Below the pieces are notes generated by a model that did not search any database, was not told where the DNA came from, and saw only the letters and a list, made by a program, of their open reading frames with translations. A stretch of DNA of 19,091 bases from a virus. Lineage: Duplodnaviria; Heunggongvirae; Uroviricota; Caudoviricetes. This document shows, piece by piece, positions 4,533 through 19,021 of the stretch. Made by a program: the position numbers and the translations under genes. The stretch's first letter is position 1, and every line of letters begins with the position of its first letter. The stretch spans positions 1 to 19,091 of the IMG/VR virus record IMGVR_UViG_3300033156_000141, one strand, 5' to 3'.

Positions 4533-4901
4533 GTGTTGAGTGTATATTGTAAAAGAGAGAAACCAGTAGGTCAATCTGATGTTCTAGCTTCAGAGACAGG
4601 TATATCTGGAGAAATAGATACTGATACAGATTCTTCTCCAGTTACTGTTTATACTCCACCATCTGGATATAAAGTTAGTACAAGAGCTGTTCATCTATTT
4701 ACTGATAGTACAGCTGGAGAAATCGAAACTAGATTTTCGTCTGGTAAGATAATCGCTAAGATCTATTGTGCTGTTCACACAATGCTATCTCTTCCAGAAA
4801 TAAAGCTCGATGGAGAAATAGATGATCCAATAGAAATAATCTGGGATAGCACTAGTCCTAATTGCAAGATATTTTATCAGATAAGATTCAAGATACTATA
4901 A
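4533..4901 (+). CDS. Hypothetical beta-rich virion protein (possible head decoration/cement protein)
   Basis: 122 aa; GTG start after GGGAG; TVYTPPSG plus alternating hydrophobic strands; sole gene between MCP and tail tube. Function inferred from position only. Confidence 0.55.
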   Translation: MLSVYCKREKPVGQSDVLASETGISGEIDTDTDSSPVTVYTPPSGYKVSTRAVHLFTDSTAGEIETRFSSGKIIAKIYCAVHTMLSLPEIKLDGEIDDPIEIIWDSTSPNCKIFYQIRFKIL

Positions 4902-4937
4902 GTTTTTATATTATTTAGCTACTATTTTATTTGGAAA

Positions 4938-4988
4938 CTCCCAAGTGGGAGCTTCTATAAATAGAACCTAACAAGTGTTAGGTGGAGG
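4938..4988 (+). promoter_or_regulatory. Three abutting inverted repeats around a TATAAATA box, followed by the SD of the tail tube gene
   Basis: CTCCC-AAGT-GGGAG (4938-4951), TTCTA-TAAA-TAGAA (4953-4966), ACCTAAC-AAGT-GTTAGGT (4966-4983); TATAAATA at 4956-4963; GGAGG at 4984-4988. Confidence 0.55.
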
Positions 4989-4996
4989 ATAAGAGT

Positions 4997-5941
4997 ATGA
5001 GCTATTTCACAGATAGATGGGTTAAATTTAGTAAAGAGACTACATGGGGAGAATGGACAACTCCTAGTACATTTCCTAACTATTTGACAGACTGGGCAGC
5101 TACTACTACAGAGAATAAGAATGAAGAGGATCTTATTGGTGGAAGTAGAGACTGGAGAAAAGTTACATGGCTAGAGGAAGGTGTAGTTGCTAGATGGACA
5201 CAGGAGATGGTGTCTGGTAAGATATTTGAATATATACTAGGTTCTACTACTGATACGTCTACTACACCAGTTACATACTCTCCAGCTTCATCATTACCTT
5301 CAATGAGTATCTATAGAGGACTATATCCAGATGAAAATGGAGACACTATAAGTCTAGGATACTATGGTATGAAAGTGGATACAGCTGAGATAACTATTGA
5401 ACAAGGTTCAGATGTACAAATAGAATTGAACTTTGCTGGTAAAGGAGTAACATTACCTACTGCATCAGCTAAACCTTCACTAGATATGACTGTTATGCCA
5501 TTTTCGTTCTATCACTCAAGTATAGATGTTACACATCCCAATGGACAATTTACAGCTACTATGGCAACTAGGTTACGGATCAGTGTAAATAACAACCTAG
5601 AAGCTAGGCTATCGGCTGGTGCTCAGGATTATAGACCAGTTGAAATAAGAGAGGGAGGATTGGAAGTTACTGGAAGATTGACTGTTGGAGGTAACTTTGG
5701 TGAACTGAGCTCTATTGTTCTCAATAGACAGACATGTACTATACAGGTATATTTGATAAAGACAGAGCATACAATACAGATTACTTTGAATAATGTTACA
5801 TTTGGAGAGCTACCAGATGAACTCTCTGGACTTGATGTCATAGAAGGAGAGTTTCCATTCTCAGCTAGACCTAGCTCTGGAAATGATGCTATTAAAGTGA
5901 TAGAGGACTTTAGTGGAACATGGGATAGTCTACCATACTAG
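4997..5941 (+). CDS. Tail tube (major tail) protein
   Basis: FSKETTWGE near the N-terminus, ISVNNNLE and EIREGGLEVTGRLT are motifs of siphoviral tail tube proteins. Start reassigned from GTG 4982 to ATG 4997 because GGAGG lies 8 nt upstream of it. Confidence 0.82.
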   Translation: MSYFTDRWVKFSKETTWGEWTTPSTFPNYLTDWAATTTENKNEEDLIGGSRDWRKVTWLEEGVVARWTQEMVSGKIFEYILGSTTDTSTTPVTYSPASSLPSMSIYRGLYPDENGDTISLGYYGMKVDTAEITIEQGSDVQIELNFAGKGVTLPTASAKPSLDMTVMPFSFYHSSIDVTHPNGQFTATMATRLRISVNNNLEARLSAGAQDYRPVEIREGGLEVTGRLTVGGNFGELSSIVLNRQTCTIQVYLIKTEHTIQITLNNVTFGELPDELSGLDVIEGEFPFSARPSSGNDAIKVIEDFSGTWDSLPY

Positions 5942-5953
5942 AGGTGATAGATA

Positions 5954-6358
5954 GTGACTAAGGATAAGATAGTAACTATCAACGATATAATAGATAGACC
6001 AGTTCATACTATAGATGTACCTGGGTTTGGAAAAGTAAAATATGTAGATCCAACTATGGGAGATAGACTAGATGCTGTAAAAGAGGCTAAGGAAGATCCT
6101 AGATGGGAACACTTGGATGAAGCTCAGAAGCTGTCTCTAATATCTGACTTCGTTGTGCTCAAGATGCTAGTAGAGCCAAAGATAACTAAGGAACAATACT
6201 ATAAGTCTTCTGTTATTGCTCTTGGAAACATAATGGATGCTGTATGGACTGACTATAACATTAGATATCTAAAGCTTAGAGAGAAGAGACAGAAACAGAT
6301 AAAGGATTTTTTAGAACTAACGAAGGAAAGCTTTCCATTGAATATTACTACATTCTAA
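5954..6358 (+). CDS. Tail assembly chaperone (gpG-like)
   Basis: 134 aa between tail tube and tape measure; GAGGTGA SD at 5941-5947; slippery heptamer near the 3' end. Confidence 0.78.
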   Translation: MTKDKIVTINDIIDRPVHTIDVPGFGKVKYVDPTMGDRLDAVKEAKEDPRWEHLDEAQKLSLISDFVVLKMLVEPKITKEQYYKSSVIALGNIMDAVWTDYNIRYLKLREKRQKQIKDFLELTKESFPLNITTF

Positions 6359-8194: not shown

Positions 8195-10953
8195 GCAATC
8201 CAGCTCTTCAATCAAGATCATCTGTAGAAGTGTTCTTTCAAGTAGGATATGGAAATGATGGAATGTATGCTTATGATAGTGTTAAGTCTCCTTGGGGATT
8301 CTATCCTACTACAGGATGGAGTAATGATGGAGACATAGCTACTATTGAAGTAGAATCTGGAGAATCAACATTTGAGTCTACAATTCCATCAGCACTACTA
8401 TTAACAATGATATCTTCATCATTTCCAAATGTTTTCTTTAGAGCTAAGATCAAAGAAGCTGGCTCACAATACAAGTATGGAGTTAGGTATTATGATGATA
8501 CAGAAGAATTCTCTCCTTACTATGGTAATGAAGATTGGCAAACTAACTCACTAAGATTGTCAGCTATTGGAAAGAACATTAGATCATTCAAAATTAGTGT
8601 AATAGGCACGATCGAAGCTGACTACTTTATGTTTTGTGGAGACACAACTCCAGCTTATTTAACTATTCTTCCATTGAAAATGGACATTAAAAGAGCTATA
8701 ACTGATGAGATAGATACTGCTGAGTTTACGCTTGACTTTCCAGACTATTGTAACTATGATTTTCTTGGTTCACATATTAAAGTATGGCTAGCTAAGGACA
8801 CTGTAATTACTTCTTCAAGCTTTAGAAAAGTTTTTACTGGGATAGTCGAACATATAAACAAGACAGTTGAAGGTCATGAGCCTAGAAACTTAGTTTTAAA
8901 TGCTAATGGATATGGTTCATATCTTAGAAGGAAAGTGTTTAAGATAGGAAAGTCTATGGCAGGATACACTCATGAAGTTGTAAGAGGAATAGTGGAAGAT
9001 CTTGTTGAAGAAGGGCTAGTAACCACACATCATGTATATGAGACTTCTGAGTCCTTCTATTATTCAACAAGACAGAACAAGTATGCTTCTGATGCATTAG
9101 AAGAGTTAGCTGATAAGTACGATTATGATTTCTATGTTGATGTTGGAAGTGATCTTCATTTCTGGAAAAGAGGAACACTTGAGAGTGATTTGAATATAGA
9201 TATTGATGAGACACATGAATTTCCATATGAGGAGGATTTAGAGTCTGTAATTAATTATCAACAAGTTATAGGAGCTGACGTAGGAACTATTGGGAGTGAT
9301 ATGTTATGGTGTGATCAGCTTAGCAATTGGAGTGCAAGTGGTAATTTGTCCTTGGATAATCAAGTAGTTTATAGTGAAGCTGAGGGGTCTGTATCTCTTA
9401 GAAACTCTGTCTCTAATGCTATGATTTGGTTTGAACGTACTCTTGATCCAAGTGAACAGGATCTTTCACTAGGAGGTGTTTTGACATATGCTTTACAAGT
9501 AAGAGCAAATACTTCAGCTTCTGGATTGTCACCTAAACTTAAGACAAGAAATATGTTCATAAGTCCAAAGGGAACATTTACTGTTGTGGTAGAATCTTCT
9601 GGAGGTTTAAAATCAAAACGAAGCTTAGAAAGATATGATGCAATTCCTTATCCAGATTATCCAGGAGATGACTATTATTTCTGGTACTATCCATTTTCTG
9701 TATTTGAAGTTCCATTTAATTACAAAGCTAGAACACCACCAACTAAAGCTGGGTCGACGATTGACTGGAGTGAAATTCGTACAATAAGAGTTGAAGTGAT
9801 AGAACCTGATACTTCCAGCTCAGAAGGTATAGCTTGGTTAGATAATTTCTATATTAAGGATGTTTATCTCTCAACTATAGTGTCCAGCTATGACTCTATT
9901 GTGAAATATGGTAGAAGAGAAGGAATTCCAATTGGTCCAGATCCTGAACTGGATACAATGGATAAAGTGGCTTTCATTGGTTCTGTAGTAGTATCTGTTT
10001 ACAAAGATCCTATTAGAACAGTTACTGATGTTAAAACTCTAAGGGGATTTGATTTCCAACTCGGATATGAACATACCATTTCAGTTTTAGAAATGCAGAA
10101 TGTTCCATTAATACTTAGAAACATCAGACACGAAGTCAAGGGGATGGATTTTAATACCTATTTGACATTCACAAAGAGACATATACCGTCACCAGAGAAG
10201 CTATTAGCAATTACCAAGAAGCAACTAAGAGCTTATGGATGGGATATTGAGGCTTGGAAAAATGCAAGATCTCCAGCAAGTGTATTTGATACAAGATCAG
10301 AAGCTATTGAATTCTGGGAAGCTGATCTAGATTTTGCTAGAGCAGCTTTAGTTAGTTCAGTCTTTGCAGTATCCGTTGGAGATTCAACTGAAAATTATGG
10401 AGTATTAAATCCAACATACGTTGAGTCTTTTGAAGTTGGTGGAGGTGGTTATTACAAAGTTAGAATTGCAAACTCAGCTGGTCATTTATCTGGTGTAAAG
10501 TCAAAACTAAGATCATTAGATGGAAATAATAAAATACAATTTAGATTCAAAGCTGTACCAGAGATTTTTAGCTCTACTTCGGAAAATAGACACATGATAA
10601 TTGGTATTTACGATCCAGATACTGAATCTGGTTATCATTTTTACTTTGAAATGCCTGCTCTTGAAACAACTGGTACATTGTACTTTGTAGTAAACAACCC
10701 AGGAATTTCTACTTACAACACAGTTACTATCGGTACGTGGGCTAGTGGCAATACTTATGATTGTTGGTGTATAGTTGATCCAGATGTAAACAGAGTACAC
10801 ATATTACTTGATGAAGAACATATAGATACTGTCACAGACAATATAGTTTCTGGAACATTTCATCCATTTTCAGTGTATGGGTATACTGGTGAGGTTACAG
10901 CTGGTAGTATTCAGGTTGAATTATACGGTTATCAGGTGGCATATGCATGGTGA
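8191..10953 (+). CDS. Tail tip hub/Tal-like protein with additional beta-sandwich (carbohydrate-binding-like) domains
   Basis: KRAITDEIDTAEFTL, DALEELADKYDYDFYVDVGSDLHFW and SIVKYGRREG resemble hub-type tail tip proteins. TTGA overlap with the tape measure stop. Confidence 0.65.
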   Translation: MSNPALQSRSSVEVFFQVGYGNDGMYAYDSVKSPWGFYPTTGWSNDGDIATIEVESGESTFESTIPSALLLTMISSSFPNVFFRAKIKEAGSQYKYGVRYYDDTEEFSPYYGNEDWQTNSLRLSAIGKNIRSFKISVIGTIEADYFMFCGDTTPAYLTILPLKMDIKRAITDEIDTAEFTLDFPDYCNYDFLGSHIKVWLAKDTVITSSSFRKVFTGIVEHINKTVEGHEPRNLVLNANGYGSYLRRKVFKIGKSMAGYTHEVVRGIVEDLVEEGLVTTHHVYETSESFYYSTRQNKYASDALEELADKYDYDFYVDVGSDLHFWKRGTLESDLNIDIDETHEFPYEEDLESVINYQQVIGADVGTIGSDMLWCDQLSNWSASGNLSLDNQVVYSEAEGSVSLRNSVSNAMIWFERTLDPSEQDLSLGGVLTYALQVRANTSASGLSPKLKTRNMFISPKGTFTVVVESSGGLKSKRSLERYDAIPYPDYPGDDYYFWYYPFSVFEVPFNYKARTPPTKAGSTIDWSEIRTIRVEVIEPDTSSSEGIAWLDNFYIKDVYLSTIVSSYDSIVKYGRREGIPIGPDPELDTMDKVAFIGSVVVSVYKDPIRTVTDVKTLRGFDFQLGYEHTISVLEMQNVPLILRNIRHEVKGMDFNTYLTFTKRHIPSPEKLLAITKKQLRAYGWDIEAWKNARSPASVFDTRSEAIEFWEADLDFARAALVSSVFAVSVGDSTENYGVLNPTYVESFEVGGGGYYKVRIANSAGHLSGVKSKLRSLDGNNKIQFRFKAVPEIFSSTSENRHMIIGIYDPDTESGYHFYFEMPALETTGTLYFVVNNPGISTYNTVTIGTWASGNTYDCWCIVDPDVNRVHILLDEEHIDTVTDNIVSGTFHPFSVYGYTGEVTAGSIQVELYGYQVAYAW

Positions 10954-11231
10954 AAAGAATTATAATACTTAGGAAAAGAAACATCATAAAAGAGCTGGAA
11001 AATCTAGGGTTCAATGTGCTTTATGCAGAAAACGATAAGATTGTACTAGAACCTAAGGATTCAAACGCTACTCTATCAGCTAGAGCATTAAACAAGATTC
11101 TTCCTGGTTGGGAGAAAGAAGAAACACTTAAAAATAAAATTAAAGATACTGAGATAAAATCAATGATGAGAGCAGCTAGGAGGATGATACATGCCGATAG
11201 CAATTCCAATTCGGGTAATAAAGATAGTTAA
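10947..11231 (+). CDS. Hypothetical protein
   Basis: 94-aa ORF overlapping the hub stop and filling the gap; no recognised motif. Confidence 0.55.
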   Translation: MVKRIIILRKRNIIKELENLGFNVLYAENDKIVLEPKDSNATLSARALNKILPGWEKEETLKNKIKDTEIKSMMRAARRMIHADSNSNSGNKDS

Positions 11232-12042
11232 GAAAACATACAGGCGATTACTTAAGGAATTTCTTTCCATAAGAGAGAAAACTAATCTATTTGTTAATCT
11301 GAGTAAGTCAGTCAGTATTATAGAACGATTTGTACATAGAATGATCTTAAGAGATTTACTTAGCATCGGTTATTGCATCAAGATAAAAATTCTCCTATTT
11401 GAAGACATTATTTTATCACTGATAACCAAGATAGCTCTAAAGCTAAGAAATTACATTTCATTATATGAAAGACTAGTTATCAACTTGATGGTACATGATA
11501 CTGAGACTATTGTTAAGAATATTAAGATCAATCTAAGCTTACTTGAAAATCTACTTCAATCAGAAATTATTAAAGTCTTAATCTCTCTAAGGCAATCCAT
11601 ACTTACCTTTGAAAAATTGAAAATGCACTTGTTTATGACAGATATTCAATCAATCAGTAGTAAAATATCCTTAGTAACTAAGCAAATTGAAAGTGCTCTT
11701 GTAAATGAGCTACAGAATATTTATTTAAAAATAACCAAAAATGTATCTGCTAGTGATTTTCTTAAGAGAACACATCTGTTTATGAAAGAATCGTATTCAA
11801 TATTGAAGAGTATGAAAATGAAAATATCAAATCTAGTAGAAAACATAACATTATCTGATCTTTATCAGACACTCAAGCTTAAGCTTTCGAGTTCAGTGAC
11901 TCTATCAGAGAATCTTTATTACGAAGTTTATCCATTTGTATATTCTCTGGATATAGTCACTGGATATCCAAGTAAGACATTCCCTTCACTTGATATTACT
12001 AGTACAGAAGTTAAGACTTATGGGGAAGTTACTATATCATGA
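11191..12042 (+). CDS. Fibre-shaft-like protein with 14 tandem 16/17-residue repeats
   Basis: From aa 21: ten consecutive 16-aa units, then three 17-aa units and a final unit; consensus roughly L-x-E-x-I-S-I-x-E-x-I-K-I-x-L-x. Confidence 0.7.
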   Translation: MPIAIPIRVIKIVKKTYRRLLKEFLSIREKTNLFVNLSKSVSIIERFVHRMILRDLLSIGYCIKIKILLFEDIILSLITKIALKLRNYISLYERLVINLMVHDTETIVKNIKINLSLLENLLQSEIIKVLISLRQSILTFEKLKMHLFMTDIQSISSKISLVTKQIESALVNELQNIYLKITKNVSASDFLKRTHLFMKESYSILKSMKMKISNLVENITLSDLYQTLKLKLSSSVTLSENLYYEVYPFVYSLDIVTGYPSKTFPSLDITSTEVKTYGEVTIS

Positions 12043-12059
12043 AATATAGGTGAGTGAGT

Positions 12060-12353
12060 ATGAGTGAATATAAGATAAATGAAGTAAGAGTTGAAGGAGA
12101 TACAGCTCTTATAGTACTTATGTCTGATACTGATGGATTTGGAGTATCAATTGCATATTCACAGTTACTAGAGATGTCAGAATCTGAACTAGATGCATTT
12201 CTACAGTCCAGAATCAAGGAACGAATTAAACATCTAGAAGCTGTAGAAAAAGAGAAAGAAAATAGCAAGAATAAAGAAGAACATATTAAACATCTAGTTG
12301 GAAAGAAGATCAAAATTTCTAAAGAAATAATCGGTGAAGGAGGTGAAGAATAA
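12060..12353 (+). CDS. Hypothetical tail-associated protein
   Basis: AGGTGA SD 6 nt upstream of ATG 12060 (track start GTG 12054); beta N-terminal half, charged helical C-terminal half. Confidence 0.65.
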   Translation: MSEYKINEVRVEGDTALIVLMSDTDGFGVSIAYSQLLEMSESELDAFLQSRIKERIKHLEAVEKEKENSKNKEEHIKHLVGKKIKISKEIIGEGGEE

Positions 12354-12539
12354 ATGATCACTAGCAACCAAGAGATATCTGTCCTTATAGAGAAGATAGC
12401 TAGGAATCTACAGTCTGCTATATGGGTTCTTCAAAACACTATGGAAGATCTTCAACGGTTAGGAGTATTGATATCTGAGATTAATAGAGAACTACAAGAC
12501 AAGAAAGAGAATAAGACTAAGACCAAGGAGAAGAAATAA
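12354..12539 (+). CDS. Small coiled-coil protein (possible fibre chaperone)
   Basis: GGAGGTGA SD at 12339-12346; 61 aa with heptad pattern; TAATG coupling to the fibre gene. Confidence 0.65.
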   Translation: MITSNQEISVLIEKIARNLQSAIWVLQNTMEDLQRLGVLISEINRELQDKKENKTKTKEKK

Positions 12540-13735
12540 TGCTAGATTTCAAGTATGACATAGAGACTGGTAATCTCTTTCTGTTTGATTCAAGTAGAGT
12601 AGAGTCTATTGTAAAAAACATATTAAAGAAAGGATTCAAACTTGGAGATAACACTATCTATCTTAGACCAACATATATAGATATGGATGGTAATCCAATC
12701 CAGAATGCTGGAGACATGTATCCTAAAACAAGCGGAACATACTCGTTAGGATCTTCAAGCTATAGGTGGCGAGACTTATATTTAGCCAATAGAGTTTTTA
12801 TGAGCACAGATCGTCCAATAGCATTCGGAGATCTTGCGTTTGTATGGGGAAGATTTGATTCTGCAAGAATATCTTTTAATGCGTGGTATAATGGGTCAGC
12901 GTGGCAAATTCCAAATGCTTCGTACAGGAGTTCTCTTATAGATATCGGTATTGCTACTGGCTATACATGGGGAGATGCAATAGGATTTTACTTTACACAG
13001 ACACCTGGAGGAACCGATTTCGACGAGAGGGCTGTCTTAGATTATTTGGGAAATCTGAAAATAGACGGCGATTTTGATGCTTCAGCCTTGAAAATAGGCG
13101 GAACTGAGGTTCTGACAAGCGGAAGAGTATTGCAGAATATTGCTTCAGTAGCTCAGAGTTTACTTCCAAGCTCAGACAACACACACAACCTCGGCAGCTC
13201 AAGCTATAAGTGGAAGAATGGTTATATAATCACTAATGTAATCGGTTCTGGACTGTCACTTCCGAATAACATCGCTGGAGAATTGCATGTAGGCTGGAGA
13301 AAATATGGCACATCTGGCAACTATGAGGTCAGCAGAATAGCAATACAGCCGCCGTTTCATACTGGAGGACCGTTCATAGTGTTTGCGAGAGACGAACCCA
13401 CTAATGCATATCTCACCTTGAAATATGGCACTAACAAAATTTTCGAAATACGTCATAACGGCTTATTATGGCTTTTCAATACTGCCTATCTAAAAACTAT
13501 CTTACCAGACGCAAATAACGCCTTCGACCTCGGAAGTTCAAGTTACAGGTGGAGAAATGTTCATGCCGTCAACCTCTACGGTACGGCTCATTATGCAGAT
13601 GTCTATTTCCAAGATCTTGTGTGTCCTCTCTGTCATAAAAGGTTTAAAGAACATGACAAGCTAGTATTGATAGTAACTAAAGTATCGGATAAGGAAATAA
13701 GATGTCTTCCAGCTCATCTGGAGTGTGATTCTTAA
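12539..13735 (+). CDS. Tail fibre / receptor-binding protein
   Basis: Three P-x6-LGSSSY[RK]W repeats (12722-12784, 13166-13228, 13505-13567) typical of fibre knuckles, separating Gly/aromatic beta domains. C-terminal CPLC...HLEC putative metal site. Confidence 0.8.
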   Translation: MLDFKYDIETGNLFLFDSSRVESIVKNILKKGFKLGDNTIYLRPTYIDMDGNPIQNAGDMYPKTSGTYSLGSSSYRWRDLYLANRVFMSTDRPIAFGDLAFVWGRFDSARISFNAWYNGSAWQIPNASYRSSLIDIGIATGYTWGDAIGFYFTQTPGGTDFDERAVLDYLGNLKIDGDFDASALKIGGTEVLTSGRVLQNIASVAQSLLPSSDNTHNLGSSSYKWKNGYIITNVIGSGLSLPNNIAGELHVGWRKYGTSGNYEVSRIAIQPPFHTGGPFIVFARDEPTNAYLTLKYGTNKIFEIRHNGLLWLFNTAYLKTILPDANNAFDLGSSSYRWRNVHAVNLYGTAHYADVYFQDLVCPLCHKRFKEHDKLVLIVTKVSDKEIRCLPAHLECDS

Positions 13736-14460
13736 TGGGGTTTACGTGGAGTAGGACTATAACATCTGGTACAGATATTCAGGATAGTGATGTTAATGAG
13801 ATAAAGAACAATATCGACACTATATATTCTGAGCTAGGAATCAATTATCCTGGATGTACTGGAGCTGGATGGGTTGAGCTACCTGTGTCTGCTAATGATC
13901 CAATAGAGTCAGCTGACTTCCAAGAGCTAAGGGATCGTCTTGATTATGGATGGGACAATCGTTGTCCATCTCATGATGCAGCTGACTACACTACTTATGA
14001 TGATGCAGTGCAGACTTCAGATAATGACAACCATGATAGTAGCCATCATAATGATGATAACGAGACTCACTGGGAGCAACACTTCGATGTGCACTACTAC
14101 GACGAACATACAGGGTACCAGGGCTCACACCAGAGTTCAGATTACACAGGTGAACATGTCTCAGACTGGCTTACTGATTATTCAATCCACTATGATGGTG
14201 TCAAAGACTCTGCTGATGCGTCAGACTATCCTGGTGACTACACCAGTTACAATACAGGTCACGATTCAAACTATAACGGCTCATATTACTACAGTGATGA
14301 AGGAATAGTCTATATTGATGATCATGGCACATATCGTTCTGGAGTAGATGCATCTGACAATACCTCGGATTACACTTCCTATTGTAGTACTCACAGATCA
14401 GGAGCTGATGCTACTTATAATAGTAGTGTTAATTCTGACTATAATACTATAATTACATAG
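13735..14460 (+). CDS. Tetrapeptide-repeat His/Asp/Tyr-rich protein A (putative radical SAM substrate or virion fibre protein)
   Basis: Two copies of a W-x5/6-G/N-x2-I-x3-D-x2-E-[IL]-[KR]-x3-D leader-like domain, then 41 uninterrupted tetrapeptides; TAATG-coupled to the fibre gene. Confidence 0.8.
   Translation: MGFTWSRTITSGTDIQDSDVNEIKNNIDTIYSELGINYPGCTGAGWVELPVSANDPIESADFQELRDRLDYGWDNRCPSHDAADYTTYDDAVQTSDNDNHDSSHHNDDNETHWEQHFDVHYYDEHTGYQGSHQSSDYTGEHVSDWLTDYSIHYDGVKDSADASDYPGDYTSYNTGHDSNYNGSYYYSDEGIVYIDDHGTYRSGVDASDNTSDYTSYCSTHRSGADATYNSSVNSDYNTIIT
13963..14454 (+). repeat. Array of 41 degenerate tetrapeptide units
   Basis: CPSH DAAD YTTY DDAV QTSD NDNH DSSH ... RSGA DATY NSSV NSDY NTII; position 4 is H/D/Y in 31 of 41 units. 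Confidence 0.85.
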
Positions 14461-14469
14461 GTGATTGAA

Positions 14470-15054
14470 ATGCCATTTATTTGGACTCAGGACATTTCAG
14501 TTGGAGCTGCTATAGATGCAACTGATATAAATGAGATTAGAGACAACACGGATACTCTATACGATAATATGTGTTCTTCTCACGACTCTTCCTACTGTTC
14601 AGATCATAAATCTAACGATCTAGATACAGATGATGTTACTGTTGAAACTGATAAGACTGGTGTTGATGCTGAATACTTCTTTGAAGACTGGTCTGAATAT
14701 TGGACTGGAGTTGATTTAGACTACTGTCCAGATGATAAATCATCTCACTTCATCAATGCCTTAACTGATCATTTCACTGGTGATCAAGGCATCTATTATG
14801 CGTCGTTTCTAACAGGTGACGATGGACTAATATACTCAGCAGACTATACAAACCACTTAAATGATCATCATAGTGGATATGATTCCACTGATCGTACCTC
14901 AGAGGATATCGGACACGATAGTGGATATGACGGTGTATATAATTCTTCAGCTAAAACATCAGAATATTCTGGAGATAAAGGTGTTCATTATTCCTCGTAT
15001 TATGATGATGACAAAGGTGCTGTTTATTCTACACACAATTCGAGTGTGGTGTAA
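14470..15054 (+). CDS. Tetrapeptide-repeat His/Asp/Tyr-rich protein B (paralog of A)
   Basis: One leader-like domain (FIWTQDISVGAAIDATDINEIRDNTDTL), then about 39 tetrapeptides. Start reassigned from GTG 14461 to ATG 14470 because AGGTGA lies at 14459-14464. Confidence 0.8.
   Translation: MPFIWTQDISVGAAIDATDINEIRDNTDTLYDNMCSSHDSSYCSDHKSNDLDTDDVTVETDKTGVDAEYFFEDWSEYWTGVDLDYCPDDKSSHFINALTDHFTGDQGIYYASFLTGDDGLIYSADYTNHLNDHHSGYDSTDRTSEDIGHDSGYDGVYNSSAKTSEYSGDKGVHYSSYYDDDKGAVYSTHNSSVV
14572..15048 (+). repeat. Array of 39 degenerate tetrapeptide units with one 3-residue register slip
   Basis: CSSH DSSY CSDH KSND LDTD DVTV [ETD] KTGV DAEY FFED WSEY WTGV ... KGAV YSTH NSSV. Confidence 0.8.
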
Positions 15055-15056
15055 AA

Positions 15057-16316
15057 ATGGAATCAGTTGAGATATTAACATCAGCTTGGTGTCCTCTGAA
15101 CTGTCGTTACTGCTACATTCCAAAGACTCCATATATGAAAGAGATGCATGAGAATGTTAGAAAACAGATTAGAAATTATTTAGAAGAAGTCAAGTTACGA
15201 AAGGTCCCATATATCAGCTTCTGGGGTACAGAGCCACTGACAACTATTATGGATATTGATATTGACAGCTTCTACCATGATAAGCTACAAAGCGTCTCAT
15301 TCTCTACTTCACTACTGTATCATCCAGAACTGCTAGTCAAATGGATAGACAAAGTAAGACCACGTAACCTTGCTCTGAAAGTTCAAGTATCTTTAGATGG
15401 TCCTAGCTTCATCACTGACAGAAATAGGGCTAAAGGTGCATCATCCAAGATTCCTGAGAACTTAATGAATATTGTAAAAGACTTGAACAAAATAAATCTT
15501 GGACAGACAAGAGTCGAATTTACGTTTAAACCTACATTGACAATTGAGAATCTAGAAGGTTTAATAGAGAATCCAACTTTGATGGAGGAGTATGTCGGAT
15601 ATTTCAGGAGTATTGAGTGTGATTTCAAAAATACAAATAGGAATAAGAATGTAGCATTAAGGTATGGCAGCTACAGTCCTACAATGATGGTCCCTGGAAA
15701 GTACACTAGTACTGATGGTAAGATTTTTGCTAGATTTGTGAAGCTAAGTTATGAGAAGGGACTCAAGACATCATATCATTTCAGACTTAGAAGACTTTAT
15801 GATTTTGGATATGAACTTCATAAGAAACGAATGTTTACATGCTCAGGTGGTGACTCTAACTTTGGATATGACGGCAAGTGGCATATATGCCATAGAAGCT
15901 TCTATTTAGATAAGAAAAACTATGTTCAATCTGTTCTAGAAACTGATATTGAGAATTGGGATGTATCCTTGTTTGAGACTGGCAAAATAGATCTAGTAAG
16001 ACAGTATATTACTTCTGATGAAACTAGACTAAAATATGTATTACGTGGTCATCATGATTTCTGGAAGTTAGGAATCTCTTCTGTAATTGCTAGATTAAAA
16101 GAGCTTGCAGCTTGTAATCAAGTAAGTAGAATATATGAATCTGATGAGATAGCAACTAAGTTTGCTATTTTCTCTCAGAGCTGCATAGATTGCCCTATGG
16201 AAAACTTATTAAATACTGGTTCAATACATATAGTACCAGTATCTCTTATTAGACTATTCTGTAATGGAGCATTTGAAGAAATAGATAGGAGGGTAAGAAA
16301 TGAGCTATCAATCTGA
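15057..16316 (+). CDS. Radical SAM protein with a remodelled SPASM/twitch-like C-terminus
   Basis: CPLNCRYC (CxxxCxxC) at 15090-15113; WGTEP (GGEP-like); VSLDG; C-x10-G-x4-C at 15840-15890; late CIDC...C, but no CX2CX5CX3C. Confidence 0.9.
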   Translation: MESVEILTSAWCPLNCRYCYIPKTPYMKEMHENVRKQIRNYLEEVKLRKVPYISFWGTEPLTTIMDIDIDSFYHDKLQSVSFSTSLLYHPELLVKWIDKVRPRNLALKVQVSLDGPSFITDRNRAKGASSKIPENLMNIVKDLNKINLGQTRVEFTFKPTLTIENLEGLIENPTLMEEYVGYFRSIECDFKNTNRNKNVALRYGSYSPTMMVPGKYTSTDGKIFARFVKLSYEKGLKTSYHFRLRRLYDFGYELHKKRMFTCSGGDSNFGYDGKWHICHRSFYLDKKNYVQSVLETDIENWDVSLFETGKIDLVRQYITSDETRLKYVLRGHHDFWKLGISSVIARLKELAACNQVSRIYESDEIATKFAIFSQSCIDCPMENLLNTGSIHIVPVSLIRLFCNGAFEEIDRRVRNELSI

Positions 16317-17574
16317 GAATGATAAACTACTAAATTCATTTCTAGAAAGAACATTTTTTAAAGGATTTAAGTATCCAAGAGAATATCCAAACTGGTCAAG
16401 GTTAGAACTATATATGAATACAAGGTGTAATCAAAATTGTAAGTATTGTTACCTTGCACGTTATGGAGCTAAGCTCTATCCAGAATTTGATCAAGACAAG
16501 GTTATTAAAAATACCAGAAAGCTTCTTCATTGGTTGGATTATAATGACTTTCATCCTAACTTAGAACTATTCTCTGGTGAACCACTAGTACAATCTACTG
16601 GTTTTAAGGTTATAGACATGGTATTAGAACACAAGATTTCTTCACTAATAATACCAACTAATTTTAGCTTTATGCTGGATGATAAATTAGTTCATAAGGT
16701 CGAGGAACGTATTTTAGCTGCTAAAAACAGAGGGATTCGTCTATTTCTGAGTGCATCAATTGATGGTAAATATTGTGAAGAGAATAGACCACTTAAAGGA
16801 TATGAAATAGATCCACGTGATGACTCATTCTATGATAAAGTATTTGGATTTTGTAGCAAGTATAATTATGGATTTCATCCAATGGTATATTCAGAGCTTA
16901 TTGAGAACTGGTGTGATAACTTCTTATGGTTCCAAGATATGTTCAAGAAACACAAGATACCATGGTGGAATCTCTACCTACTAGAGGTACGAAATAAAGA
17001 GTGGACTAAAGAACAGATAGTGGAACTAGGTAACTTTATTAAGTTCCTAGTAAGATGGGTATATAACAAGACTGGTAAGGATGGATTTGTTAACTTTGTG
17101 TTTCGTGGTAAAGGATTTAATATTCTAAGTAATCCTCTTACAAGAGTTGGACGTGGTATAGGTTGTTCTATTCAATCAGTTATGTGTACTCGCCTACAAG
17201 ACCTAGCTATATTTCCATGTCATAGGACATCATATCCTCAGTTCAAAGTAGCTCAGTTTGATGAAAATATGAATATTAGGGCATACAATCCAGATCTTTG
17301 GATTACTATTTTGACTTTAGATGCTAATACCTTACCATATTGTGAGACTTGTCCAGTAAAGCATTTATGTGGTAAAGGATGTCTAGGTTCACAATATGAA
17401 GTCACAGGTGACTTATTTACACCTATTCCTACAGTATGTGAGATGGAACACTGGAAATTGTATAGTTATATTGAAGCTTTGAAAGAGATAGAAATGTTAG
17501 ATACTATCAAGAATACTGTCGAACTTAATAAAAGAAACTGTATTGAATTCTTGGAGGGTGAAATAAAGAAATGA
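16300..17574 (+). CDS. Radical SAM/SPASM domain peptide-maturase-like protein
   Basis: CNQNCKYC at 16426-16449; FSGEP; SASIDG; GCS...FPCH, then C-x2-C-x5-C-x3-C-x18-C (aa 348-380), the canonical SPASM spacing. Confidence 0.92.
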   Translation: MSYQSENDKLLNSFLERTFFKGFKYPREYPNWSRLELYMNTRCNQNCKYCYLARYGAKLYPEFDQDKVIKNTRKLLHWLDYNDFHPNLELFSGEPLVQSTGFKVIDMVLEHKISSLIIPTNFSFMLDDKLVHKVEERILAAKNRGIRLFLSASIDGKYCEENRPLKGYEIDPRDDSFYDKVFGFCSKYNYGFHPMVYSELIENWCDNFLWFQDMFKKHKIPWWNLYLLEVRNKEWTKEQIVELGNFIKFLVRWVYNKTGKDGFVNFVFRGKGFNILSNPLTRVGRGIGCSIQSVMCTRLQDLAIFPCHRTSYPQFKVAQFDENMNIRAYNPDLWITILTLDANTLPYCETCPVKHLCGKGCLGSQYEVTGDLFTPIPTVCEMEHWKLYSYIEALKEIEMLDTIKNTVELNKRNCIEFLEGEIKK

Positions 17575-18515
17575 TATTTTATTTTAATCTTAATGTAGGA
17601 GGAGGAATAGAGAGAACAGGACATGTAGTTGAAAGTATGCTATCAGATGCATATGTCTATCGTTTTCAGAATCCAGGATTTCTTATGTTTGAAGAACTTA
17701 TGAAAATTCAACCAAATGTAATTATAATGAATGAGCAGTTTCCACGTGTTATGGAAGCTGTGTATTATTATCAGCTAACAAGAAATTGTCGTATTATTCT
17801 TTTGAATCACTGTTATAGCAATTTAAATGGTAGAAACGAAAATGACCATGATAGACAACTTCTAGTTAAGAAGCTTTTACAAAGAACAGATGCTATTATA
17901 AACTTGAACTATGTACCAAGAAACTGTAGTTTATCCAGAAATGTAATAAGACTTTATCATCCTTGTAATCCAAAGTTTCGTCTTAAGATTCCATGGAACG
18001 ATAGACCAAGAAAATGTCTCTACTGGGGAAACTTATTACCTCATAAGTTTGATGTTAAACTCTTGGAAATGTATAGAGACATAGATATTTATGGAACTAT
18101 TCGCTATGATGGTGAATATAGAGATAAAATATTAGAAAGTGGATGTTACAAAGGTTATATTCCTGAAGATAAATTGGTTGATACTATTAATGAGTATAAA
18201 TATTTTGTAGTACCTCATAGCGGTTATGAACCATTTATGTTGACATTACAAGAAGCTATGCAGTGTGGTACTATACCTTTAGTAACTAACTCTAGAGATT
18301 ATCCAAAATCATACTGGATTGATTGGGCAAAGGGACTCTATTATGAGTTTGGATCATTAGATCTTCTTGTTAGATGGTTTAAGAGAGATCGTAATTTATC
18401 CGATTTCTCATTTTATATTTCAGATGAAATTCAAAAGAGACATAGTTATGAACGCTTTAAGATTATATTATGGTCATTAATTAGACAGAATCTGAAATGG
18501 GAGGTGGAGATATGA
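17571..18515 (+). CDS. Glycosyltransferase, GT-B fold, GT4-like
   Basis: N-terminal GGGIER; C-terminal YEPFMLTLQEAMQCGTIPLVTN carrying the E-x7-E motif (18228-18254); ATGA overlap with the rSAM/SPASM stop. Confidence 0.85.
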   Translation: MIFYFNLNVGGGIERTGHVVESMLSDAYVYRFQNPGFLMFEELMKIQPNVIIMNEQFPRVMEAVYYYQLTRNCRIILLNHCYSNLNGRNENDHDRQLLVKKLLQRTDAIINLNYVPRNCSLSRNVIRLYHPCNPKFRLKIPWNDRPRKCLYWGNLLPHKFDVKLLEMYRDIDIYGTIRYDGEYRDKILESGCYKGYIPEDKLVDTINEYKYFVVPHSGYEPFMLTLQEAMQCGTIPLVTNSRDYPKSYWIDWAKGLYYEFGSLDLLVRWFKRDRNLSDFSFYISDEIQKRHSYERFKIILWSLIRQNLKWEVEI

Positions 18516-19021
18516 GTGTGAATGACTTCTATAAGTGTTCAGAAGAGGTAAGACACTTACTGAAATTTAGAGACTTTGATAGGTTGTTTGGTAAGATGTC
18601 TTCAGAAGCTAGAGCTGTAATAAACACTTGTATTACTGATATGGAGAAGATAGCATCTGGGACCAAGATTATTGGTGATACCAATAGAGTACATAGAATG
18701 GTGGACATAGTTTTAGACAGAGTTACTAGAGAATATATTTCACCATATCTACATGATTTCTGTGAGAAATGTGGATTGCTTCTCTATAACTGGAATCAGT
18801 CCATTGAAAATCCATCAAAATCTTTAGCTACTAAGTTATGTGCAATTGATCGTCTAGTGAAATCACATTATACTATGTTAGATGCTATCAGAGTACTTAG
18901 GAACTTGACTAGGAGACCGTATACTCCAGCTGCATATGAATTAAGTAGACATTATTTACGAGCAATACATAATGAAAATAAAGAAATAAATACAAAAACT
19001 ATTAAAGATAAATCTCAGTAA
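18512..19021 (+). CDS. Hypothetical alpha-helical protein coupled to the glycosyltransferase
   Basis: GGAGGTG SD at 18500-18506 and ATGA overlap at 18512-18515 favour this start over 18497; no recognised motif. Confidence 0.7.
   Translation: MSVNDFYKCSEEVRHLLKFRDFDRLFGKMSSEARAVINTCITDMEKIASGTKIIGDTNRVHRMVDIVLDRVTREYISPYLHDFCEKCGLLLYNWNQSIENPSKSLATKLCAIDRLVKSHYTMLDAIRVLRNLTRRPYTPAAYELSRHYLRAIHNENKEINTKTIKDKSQ

Follow-up and report, generated by a model that had tools for sequence, protein, structure and literature searches.

A tail-fibre-linked viral gene cassette that pairs two radical SAM enzymes with tetrapeptide-repeat proteins, their candidate substrates

Six genes follow the tail-fibre gene in a 19,091-nucleotide stretch of viral DNA (IMG/VR record IMGVR_UViG_3300033156_000141; hereafter, the window). 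They encode two tetrapeptide-repeat proteins (S_A and S_B), two radical S-adenosylmethionine (SAM) enzymes (rSAM1 and rSAM2), a glycosyltransferase (GT) and a helper protein, U. In this study, we found that these genes form one conserved cassette and not a chance neighbourhood. The window makes up the opening 19 kb of a virus record that is 109,754 bp long and has direct terminal repeats, and the host virus is a probable archaeal tailed virus. The genes for the major capsid protein, the tail-tube protein and the fibre protein lie upstream of the cassette, and two beta-rich open reading frames (ORFs) followed by a terminase-like gene lie downstream, which places the cassette within the morphogenesis module. 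The genes concerned are as follows.

12539..13735, + strand: tail-fibre protein, 398 aa; three LGSSSY[RK]W-type repeats, C-terminal domain (here termed fibC), PHROG tail-fibre matches
13735..14460, + strand: S_A, long-head repeat protein, 241 aa; residues 1-76 predicted as a folded head, about 41 tetrapeptide units from Cys77
14470..15054, + strand: S_B, short-head repeat protein, 194 aa; one head unit of about 30 aa ending in D-N-M-C, then about 40 tetrapeptide units
15057..16316, + strand: rSAM1, 419 aa; radical SAM core C12, C16, C19, further invariant C262, C278, C379
16300..17574, + strand: rSAM2, 424 aa; radical SAM core C43, C47, C50, seven-Cys SPASM domain
17571..18515, + strand: GT, glycosyltransferase of GT-B / Glycos_transf_1 type (GT4-type), 314 aa; PF00534
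18512..19021, + strand: U, core helper, 169 aa; six-helix bundle model, NWN and PPAFELSRHYL motifs

On re-reading, the six co-oriented genes and all the junctions behind the fibre gene were as described in an earlier note on this DNA. The fibre and S_A genes meet in TAATG (13733-13737), 9 nt separate S_A from S_B, 2 nt precede rSAM1, rSAM1 and rSAM2 overlap by 17 nt, and the rSAM2/GT and GT/U junctions both read ATGA (at 17571 and 18512, respectively). The start of U is at 18512, with the ribosome-binding site GGAGGTGGAG just ahead. A GTG at 14461 is a possible alternative start of S_B; the ATG at 14470 is the most likely one, because a GGTGA Shine-Dalgarno sequence precedes it.

Both repeat proteins follow a strict four-residue register (z 4-7 versus shuffles), which is more than chance. 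In S_A, the small residues (Ser, Thr, Gly, Ala and Asn) give autocorrelation z scores of +6.2, +5.9 and +4.7 at lags 4, 8 and 12, and of about -4.5 at lags 2 and 6. The pattern of S_B is similar, and the register of S_A can be traced through 171 residues without a shift. Moreover, among 72 repeat proteins related to S_A and S_B, 90% keep the register, at a median z of 5.1. Across this family, position 1 is Asp, Asn or Tyr (Cys in 5%), position 2 Ser, Thr, Gly or Ala, position 3 Thr, Gly or Ser, and position 4 Tyr, Val, Asp or His. The cores are acidic and rich in Asp, and they contain little Cys: three residues in the 241 aa of S_A and three in the 194 aa of S_B, with the first repeat opening on an in-register Cys in both (C-P-S-H and C-S-S-H, respectively). 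The motif [HYWF]-x-[ST] is enriched in S_A (16 observed versus 9.3 expected, z 2.8) and in S_B (15 versus 7.8, z 3.3), and this enrichment extends to most of the S family. On this basis, aromatic cyclophane chemistry on the S cores is possible. Related cores span 70-400 residues within proteins of about 100-600 aa, with up to 100 repeat units. Many of these proteins also carry a conserved [H/Y]-N-[S/T]-[S/P]-V near the C-terminus (window positions 14400-14457 and 15020-15051), which might cap the end of the chain or serve in recognition.

The heads of the S proteins consist of one or two copies of a unit of about 30 aa, W..[DE]I..G..I.A.D..E[IL][RK].N.D, ending in D-N-x-C; S_A has two copies and S_B one. 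In the alignment of these leaders, W5 and E22 are invariant, and G12, R24, D28 and C35 each reach at least 90% conservation. The model of the S_A head is compact, with two units of an extended segment plus a helix (pLDDT 89). It has no match in the PDB and a marginal match in BFVD to uncharacterised rudivirus proteins (TMq 0.73, E 0.066). Specifically, the head superposes on part of K4NWU9, A0A3Q8Q405, B6EFD3, A0A6M3VYJ8 and A0A1X9SJN5, uncharacterised proteins of 320-533 aa from rod-shaped Sulfolobales viruses (TMq 0.57-0.73, E 0.07 or higher), which we take as a lead only. Close relatives of S_A are rare, with only four in an index of 5.8 billion proteins, and its homologues share 43-92% identity. 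Searches of Pfam, NCBIfam, PHROGs and PADLOC gave no match for S_A and a single sub-threshold Pfam match for S_B (DUF7532, 18.1 bits versus a cut-off of 27); neither protein hit an NCBIfam family at E<=0.1. An Atlas feature search with S_A returned low-score leads only (0.83-0.84), including a viral cluster partly labelled PF27846, a CXXX target.

A scan of IMG/VR with the single rSAM1 sequence found nothing, and a profile scan was needed. Profile scans gave 27 IMG/VR contigs and 23 genome-bin contigs, and identity look-ups added more. Iterated hidden Markov model (HMM) searches over all ORFs of the gathered loci then yielded 46 distinct rSAM1 loci (L numbers below), on IMG/VR viral contigs and in bins of candidate phyla radiation (CPR) bacteria and of DPANN-type and other archaea. 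The trio rSAM1-rSAM2-U is kept in 43 of the 46; the remaining three are cut-off contigs. Short-period repeat proteins stand beside the enzymes in every one of the 41 loci whose upstream sequence extends for 1.5 kb or more. Leader-bearing S genes are present in 37 of these 41, nearly always as a long-head and short-head pair, and the other four (L012, L044, L051 and L055) have leaderless period-4 cores or HxsA-type His-Xaa-Ser repeat proteins in the same slot. Even where the order differs, as in L024, L027, L032 and L035 (rSAM1-U-S-S-rSAM2-U, with two U paralogues), the gene set stays together. This survey agrees with the earlier note, which had described a unit joined to the tail-fibre operon: across the 46 loci the genes form one cassette, tied to the tail-fibre gene, a fibC domain lies directly upstream of the repeat-protein genes in 14 of them, and no radical SAM pair without repeat proteins was seen in the 41 informative loci. 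The repeat proteins are the best candidates for the substrates of the enzymes.

Two loci suggest that the cassette also occurs in stop-codon-recoded phages, since their rSAM1 homologues are broken by one kind of stop codon each, four TGA in L029 (7001-8332) and 13 TAG in L036 (7001-8371). Among other features of the gathered loci, L055 contains at least five tandem radical-SAM-like paralogues of about 305-325 aa each directly after U (10156-15266). In the related virus of L005, the terminase large-subunit gene downstream of the cassette (12700-15257) carries an intein, with Intein_splicing and Terminase_6C matches.

By their sequences, rSAM1 and rSAM2 qualify as members of the radical SAM superfamily. 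rSAM1 matches PF04055 (Radical_SAM) with 39.2 bits, above the cut-off of 29.5, and rSAM2 with 21 bits, below it; the CX3CX2C motif is invariant in both (C12, C16 and C19; C43, C47 and C50). rSAM2 reaches the model TIGR04085 of the SPASM domain, a C-terminal seven-Cys motif for two auxiliary 4Fe-4S clusters, with 27.5 bits versus a cut-off of 27, and its C289, C307, C348, C351, C357, C361 and C380 are invariant. rSAM1 has no full SPASM domain; beyond its core, only C262, C278 and C379 are invariant among 25 homologues, which suggests a single, twitch-like auxiliary site. The best matches of both enzymes are peptide-modifying radical SAM/SPASM maturases (PapB, AmcB, GrrM, HxsB and SCIFF). The highest NCBIfam scores were AmcB (35.5 bits), PapB (about 35) and GrrM (29.3) for rSAM1, and PapB (49.8) and HxsB (31.5) for rSAM2; the curated cut-offs of these maturase models are 310-445 bits, and both enzymes fall far below them. 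The nearest solved structures are CteB and other enzymes of ribosomally synthesised and post-translationally modified peptides (RiPPs), with CteB (5wgg) the best for rSAM2 at E 1e-13. Kinship with cofactor- or nucleotide-modifying enzymes, the outcome that the earlier note had named as contrary to its proposal, was not what the HMM and PDB searches gave: the nearest matches in both were peptide-modifying SPASM enzymes.

Both enzymes belong to sizeable sets of relatives. rSAM1 has at least 269 at 40-60% identity. For rSAM2, 840 cluster representatives (50% identity) match at E<=0.001, and 289 of these reach E<=1e-30. A tblastn search of 50,697 GenBank phage records found no match to rSAM1 and, for rSAM2, only radical SAM genes of Campylobacter phages at 23-24% identity. 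PADLOC gave no match beyond a generic viperin-type radical SAM similarity. Elsewhere in the same virus genome, outside the window, there are two small radical-SAM-like ORFs (55396-55647 and 81674-81925, in open frames of 270 and 243 aa), which score weakly against the HxsC model (31 and 17 bits).

The two remaining genes of the cassette differ in how widely they are kept. GT matches PF00534 (Glycos_transf_1) over residues 193-267 with 33.5 bits versus a gathering threshold of 26.4. It was found in 9 of the 46 loci and is an accessory component, a lineage-specific addition; in L038, a Glycos_transf_1 domain (41.5 bits) is fused to the C-terminus of rSAM1. U is modelled as a six-helix bundle (pLDDT 92) with conserved NWN and PPAFELSRHYL motifs. 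Structure searches with U (Foldseek against the PDB, AFDB clusters, VIA-align wide) returned generic helical bundles and two members of its own family only. It has no match in Pfam, NCBIfam, PHROG or PADLOC, nothing was found in the Atlas feature search, and a word-index search with its profile recovered only 19 proteins, all without a name.

The fibre protein matches PHROG tail-fibre families with E values down to 2e-10. Its last 55 residues or so (about 13560-13732), the fibC domain, have a Zn-ribbon-like CxxC...H..C pattern. This domain is the C-terminus of the fibre in viruses and a free protein of 94-122 aa in CPR genomes, and in both it always lies directly upstream of the S genes. One such free protein, of 95 aa (L007, 4504-4791), corresponds to the last LGSSSY[RK]W-type repeat plus the Zn-ribbon-like end of the fibre. 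In addition, L017 and L026 have S proteins with Laminin_G_3 lectin-like domains, the lectin-like domains fused to some S cores measure 150-400 residues, and in L012 the final 270 aa or so of a 505-aa tail-module protein are S-like repeats. Such fusions point to the repeat cores as parts of large proteins of the adhesin or fibre kind. The expectation of the earlier note that the products are virion fibres and not secreted peptides is borne out to this extent: they are large proteins, some of them with lectin-like or tail-module fusions. Upstream of the fibre gene, the window also contains a low-complexity ORF of 283 aa (11191-12042), placed like the N-terminal half of the L012 fusion protein (4602-6119). 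A common fibre-shaft origin of the two was considered and set aside, as the BLASTP match was marginal only (E 0.077).

These data bear on two other explanations. In the first, the gene products would be classical RiPPs, with cores that are cut away from the leaders to give free, small, modified peptides, for example of a bacteriocin-like or signalling kind. The layout of a leader-like head plus a core, the conserved D-N-x-C junction as a conceivable processing site, and the resemblance of the enzymes to RiPP maturases would all suit such products. However, cores of 70-400 residues, some of them fused to lectin-like domains of 150-400 residues, do not, and neither does a cassette that sits inside virion morphogenesis modules and conserves no protease or transporter gene. 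We regard this explanation as very improbable. In the second, S_A and S_B would be unmodified fibre subunits or chaperones, and the radical SAM enzymes would act on the Zn-ribbon of the fibre, on another virion protein or on a small molecule. The S N-terminal module does fold by itself, in prediction, into a compact domain with a weak likeness (TMq 0.73, E 0.066) to domains of uncharacterised rudivirus proteins, rSAM1 lacks a full SPASM domain, and modification of the S proteins is so far a prediction. Against this, the enzymes accompany repeat proteins even where there is no fibre gene or fibC, which is present in only 14 of the 46 loci; the pairing holds when the head is of HxsA type (L044, L051 and L055) or absent (L012); and peptide maturases are the best matches of both enzymes. 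This second explanation thus seems to us quite unlikely.

We consider it reasonably probable that the cassette carries out radical SAM maturation of two tetrapeptide-repeat proteins, with U as a partner, GT as an addition of this lineage, and a product that takes its place in the tail-fibre apparatus. In such a pathway, rSAM1 (with one auxiliary Fe-S site) and rSAM2 (with a full SPASM domain) would carry out radical chemistry on the repeat cores in the cytoplasm. They would act on the register [D/N/Y/C]-[S/T/A/G]-[T/G/S]-[Y/V/D/H], most likely at its recurring sites of the [His/Tyr/Asp/Asn]-x-[Ser/Thr] type. The helical U would be a partner or adaptor, as HxsD is for HxsC, and in this lineage GT would then put sugars on the Ser/Thr-rich product. 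The N-terminal module of the matured and probably cross-linked protein would dock to the Zn-ribbon-like fibre end, where the protein would become part of the host-recognition apparatus of the virion.

The cassette is also found in cells. Cellular contigs with the cassette come from Parcubacteria, Saccharibacteria, Paceibacterota, an Iainarchaeum bin and another archaeon, and the genes beside these copies are themselves cellular (NifU, POR, RecG, TFIIE and CDC48). In eight cellular loci, from both bacteria and archaea, TatC and TatA genes of the twin-arginine translocation (Tat) system flank the cassette, upstream in L007 (3334-4791), L038, L040, L041, L047 and L060, and downstream in L045 and L062. 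The CPR loci additionally contain a protein of 74-92 aa with a twin-arginine signal. The view of the earlier note that this was an archaeal-virus system therefore needs correction, as the cassette is present in chromosomes of CPR bacteria and of DPANN-type archaea, adjoining TatAC. The TatC beside the cassette is the only one of the genome in four of the four such genomes checked, and when 400 other genomes of that CPR phylum were sampled, TatC was found in only 24; hence, the cassette and the Tat system travel together. Tat exports folded proteins, which would fit a product modified, and perhaps cross-linked, in the cytoplasm. In CPR and DPANN cells, the maturation kit would thus be coupled to dedicated TatAC export, as would suit a product that cannot be unfolded for export.

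Three CPR loci connect the cassette to another maturation system, HXS. This system was characterised in 2026 (Li et al., PMC13128918): in the cytoplasm, HxsB and HxsC, the latter with HxsD as its bound partner, mature HxsA. The maturation amounts to +8 Da on an S-H-R-S-S motif of HxsA, and the matured product is exported and blocks phage DNA entry (PMC13128918). In L044 (4234-6947), L051 (2659-6947) and L055 (3682-6955), an HxsD-like protein with an LLN..LR motif, HxsB and a His-Xaa-Ser repeat protein are followed by rSAM1-rSAM2-U. The HxsB of these hybrid loci is a true one (476-514 bits versus a cut-off of 370). Their repeat proteins match HxsA3/HxsA4 (in L055, 101 bits versus 55) and have a head like a membrane anchor; that of L051 combines an HxsA-type head with a period-4 core. 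No HxsC was seen in the three loci. The position of the trio directly downstream of Hxs genes indicates that it can serve HxS-type substrates, and the enrichment of [HYWF]-x-[ST] in S_A and S_B agrees with this. The cassette of the window is itself not an Hxs system, because none of its proteins reaches any of the four Hxs models. With rSAM2, HxsB gives 31.5 bits (TIGR03978, cut-off 370) and HxsC 13.2 (TIGR03977, cut-off 267.9), rSAM1 matches neither, no protein of the virus genome matches HxsD (TIGR03976, LLNDYxLRE motif) at E<=10, and S_A and S_B, with a period of 4 and not 3, do not match HxsA.

This connection raises a further possibility, namely that the matured repeat proteins are envelope effectors that block competing viruses, acting as a defence in cells and in superinfection exclusion in the virus. 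HXS has the same four-part logic, and its effector, once matured in the cytoplasm and exported, hinders the entry of phage DNA (PMC13128918), HxsB, HxsD and HxsA are mixed with the enzyme trio in three loci, and the TatAC genes adjoining the cellular copies imply export. The region just downstream of a tail-fibre gene is also a common place for accessory genes. However, the viral S proteins have neither a signal peptide nor a twin-arginine motif, and no Tat genes lie in the viral flank. Moreover, fibC is common to real tail fibres and cellular loci, S cores are fused to lectin-like and tail-module proteins, the cores are acidic and not basic like the DNA-binding HxS repeats, and PADLOC gives only its generic viperin-type radical SAM similarity. 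Of the alternatives considered here, this is the best placed, and we still hold it to be unlikely.

Several points weigh against maturation of fibre-borne S proteins, the reading that we prefer. Modification of the S proteins is a prediction from the genes, and their presence in virions would follow from the fusions and from the place of the genes. The components all stay below the cut-offs of the curated NCBIfam and Pfam subfamilies, the CXXX-repeat, Hxs, triceptide and PapB families among them; therefore, the chemistry cannot be transferred by homology. Furthermore, three of 69 related cores (for example, that of L035) are almost devoid of His or aromatic residues, and a single aromatic-based chemistry thus cannot cover the whole family. 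The confidently folded N-terminal module of the S proteins may be purely structural and not a leader for enzyme recognition. As to U, the predicted complex with the S_B head scored 0.34 versus 0.02 for the best control, with runs agreeing in at least 56% of contacts and a partner pLDDT of at least 47. Of 80 solved complexes, 58 passed the mark used for such predictions, as did 2 of 110 mismatched pairs; with scores of 0.60 or less, only seven of the 80 solved complexes passed it, as well as both of those mismatches. The model gives weak support to a contact of U with the S_B head. In addition, the cassette is rare in cells: when 400 other genomes of the CPR phylum were sampled, rSAM1 was found in none. 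Some of the copies taken as cellular may therefore be mobile islands. Finally, HXS, the only characterised analogue, is an antiphage envelope effector and not a fibre.

If the enzymes do modify the S proteins, they would represent a large uncatalogued family for radical-SAM protein maturation, with about 290 rSAM2 cluster representatives. The chemistry would likely differ from known thioether systems, because the substrates are whole proteins almost without cysteine. It would also bring radical post-translational chemistry into the host-recognition apparatus of a virus. Our literature searches on radical SAM enzymes in tail-fibre contexts of phages and archaeal viruses, and in SPASM and CXXX-repeat contexts, found no paper on such a cassette and no published case of this kind. 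To our knowledge, how CPR and DPANN episymbionts build their surface structures is little understood, and the cassette ties the only Tat system of some of these genomes to one cargo, which offers a handle on their surfaces. Taken to its full extent, the proposal would describe a new class of extracellular fibres or adhesins, cross-linked and glycosylated by enzymes, placed on the fibre tips of archaeal and CPR viruses, exported by CPR and DPANN cells through a dedicated Tat system acquired along with the cassette, and made by an undescribed radical-SAM chemistry on Cys-free Asp/Asn/Tyr/His-Ser/Thr repeats. In this complete form, we regard the proposal as possible but doubtful.

In comparison with known systems, the cassette resembles the CXXX-repeat system of the SPN3US locus in several respects. 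Both share a four-residue register with small residues between the key positions, and in both the proteins are small and consist of an N-terminal head followed by a tail of repeats. The SPN3US repeat unit is C-S-x-[G/S/T], with the period and small residues of S_A and S_B, and in SPN3US two radical SAM enzymes plus helpers also sit after tail-fibre genes. The first S repeat opens with an in-register Cys, a residue that makes up 5% of position 1 family-wide. However, CXXX targets have about 20-40 Cys, whereas S_A and S_B have only three each. No protein of the virus genome matches the CXXX target model TIGR04114 at E<=10, and rSAM1 scores 21-21.8 bits against the maturase model TIGR04115 (cut-off 350; for scale, SPN3US_0163 itself scores 100.8). 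With hhalign, the generic radical SAM core alone aligns between rSAM1 or rSAM2 and the SPN3US enzymes, and the U profile is unrelated to SPN3US_0161 and SPN3US_0162 (probability 0.1-0.2%). A common origin with the SPN3US cassette was rejected, since the similarity is confined to the radical SAM core and the helpers are unrelated. The description in the earlier note of a CXXX register kept with its Cys replaced is thus fair as to form; as to descent, it finds no detectable homology behind it.

Triceptide (three-residue cyclophane) systems likewise direct radical SAM/SPASM enzymes to short aromatic-x-x motifs that recur in the substrate, and the bond that defines them joins an aromatic ring by C-C linkage to the C-beta of the residue two positions further on. 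Of all NCBIfam models, AmcB matches rSAM1 best, and [HYWF]-x-[ST] is enriched in the S cores. The scores against the corresponding models are low (AmcB NF041718, 35.5 bits versus 425; GrrM/OscB TIGR04261, 29.3 versus 310; YhhB NF041707, 26.8 versus 445; FxsB TIGR04269, 15 versus 370). Unlike in these systems, the substrates of the window family are proteins of 100-400 aa, some almost without aromatics, and a second radical SAM enzyme and U are obligatory. For rSAM2, PapB (ranthipeptides) is the best HMM match (49.8 bits) and CteB (SCIFF) the best solved structure, both of them SPASM maturases that form thioethers, and the i/i+4 spacing of Cys-X3-Asp in ranthipeptides echoes the S register with Asp or Asn at position 1. 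However, rSAM2 remains far under the 340-bit cut-off of PapB, and thioether formation cannot be the main reaction, because the S substrates are almost without Cys. More generally, a RiPP core is modified under the guidance of a leader that is afterwards removed; the S proteins have a conserved head and a D-N-x-C junction, and at 190-600 aa they exceed the usual RiPP sizes.

There is a close likeness to HXS (NCBIfam TIGR03976-03979, NF038309 and NF038313). In both systems, a protein with repeats is the substrate (a candidate one in the window), the radical SAM enzymes number two, and a small protein without enzymatic activity binds one of these enzymes (as U is proposed to do here); maturation would take place in the cytoplasm here as it does in HXS, followed, in cells, by export. 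The modified site of HXS is S-H-x-S-S, and the window cores have an in-register recurring [H/Y]-x-[S/T]. The differences are as follows: HXS has five period-3 units versus about 40 period-4 units in S_A and S_B; HxS repeats are basic and DNA-binding, whereas S cores are acidic; and the S proteins of the window lack a signal peptide and a peptidoglycan-binding domain. In addition, the window family has a viral tail-fibre context and, in cells, a Tat linkage, and it occurs in archaeal and CPR viruses and in CPR and DPANN bins, whereas 99.7% of HXS is in Pseudomonadota. The earlier note knew of no description of such a system; the closely analogous HXS (HxsA-D, PMC13128918) has been described, and it is joined to the enzyme trio in three loci. 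The window family would extend the HXS logic well beyond Proteobacteria and beyond defence. Altogether, the cassette appears to work like the HXS and CXXX-repeat systems while being a member of neither. Paired radical SAM enzymes with a repeat protein and a small partner are already known as a kind, and the novelty lies in the enzyme families, in Cys-poor candidate substrates of period 4, in U, in the proposed docking domain of the fibre and in the Tat-linked cellular form.

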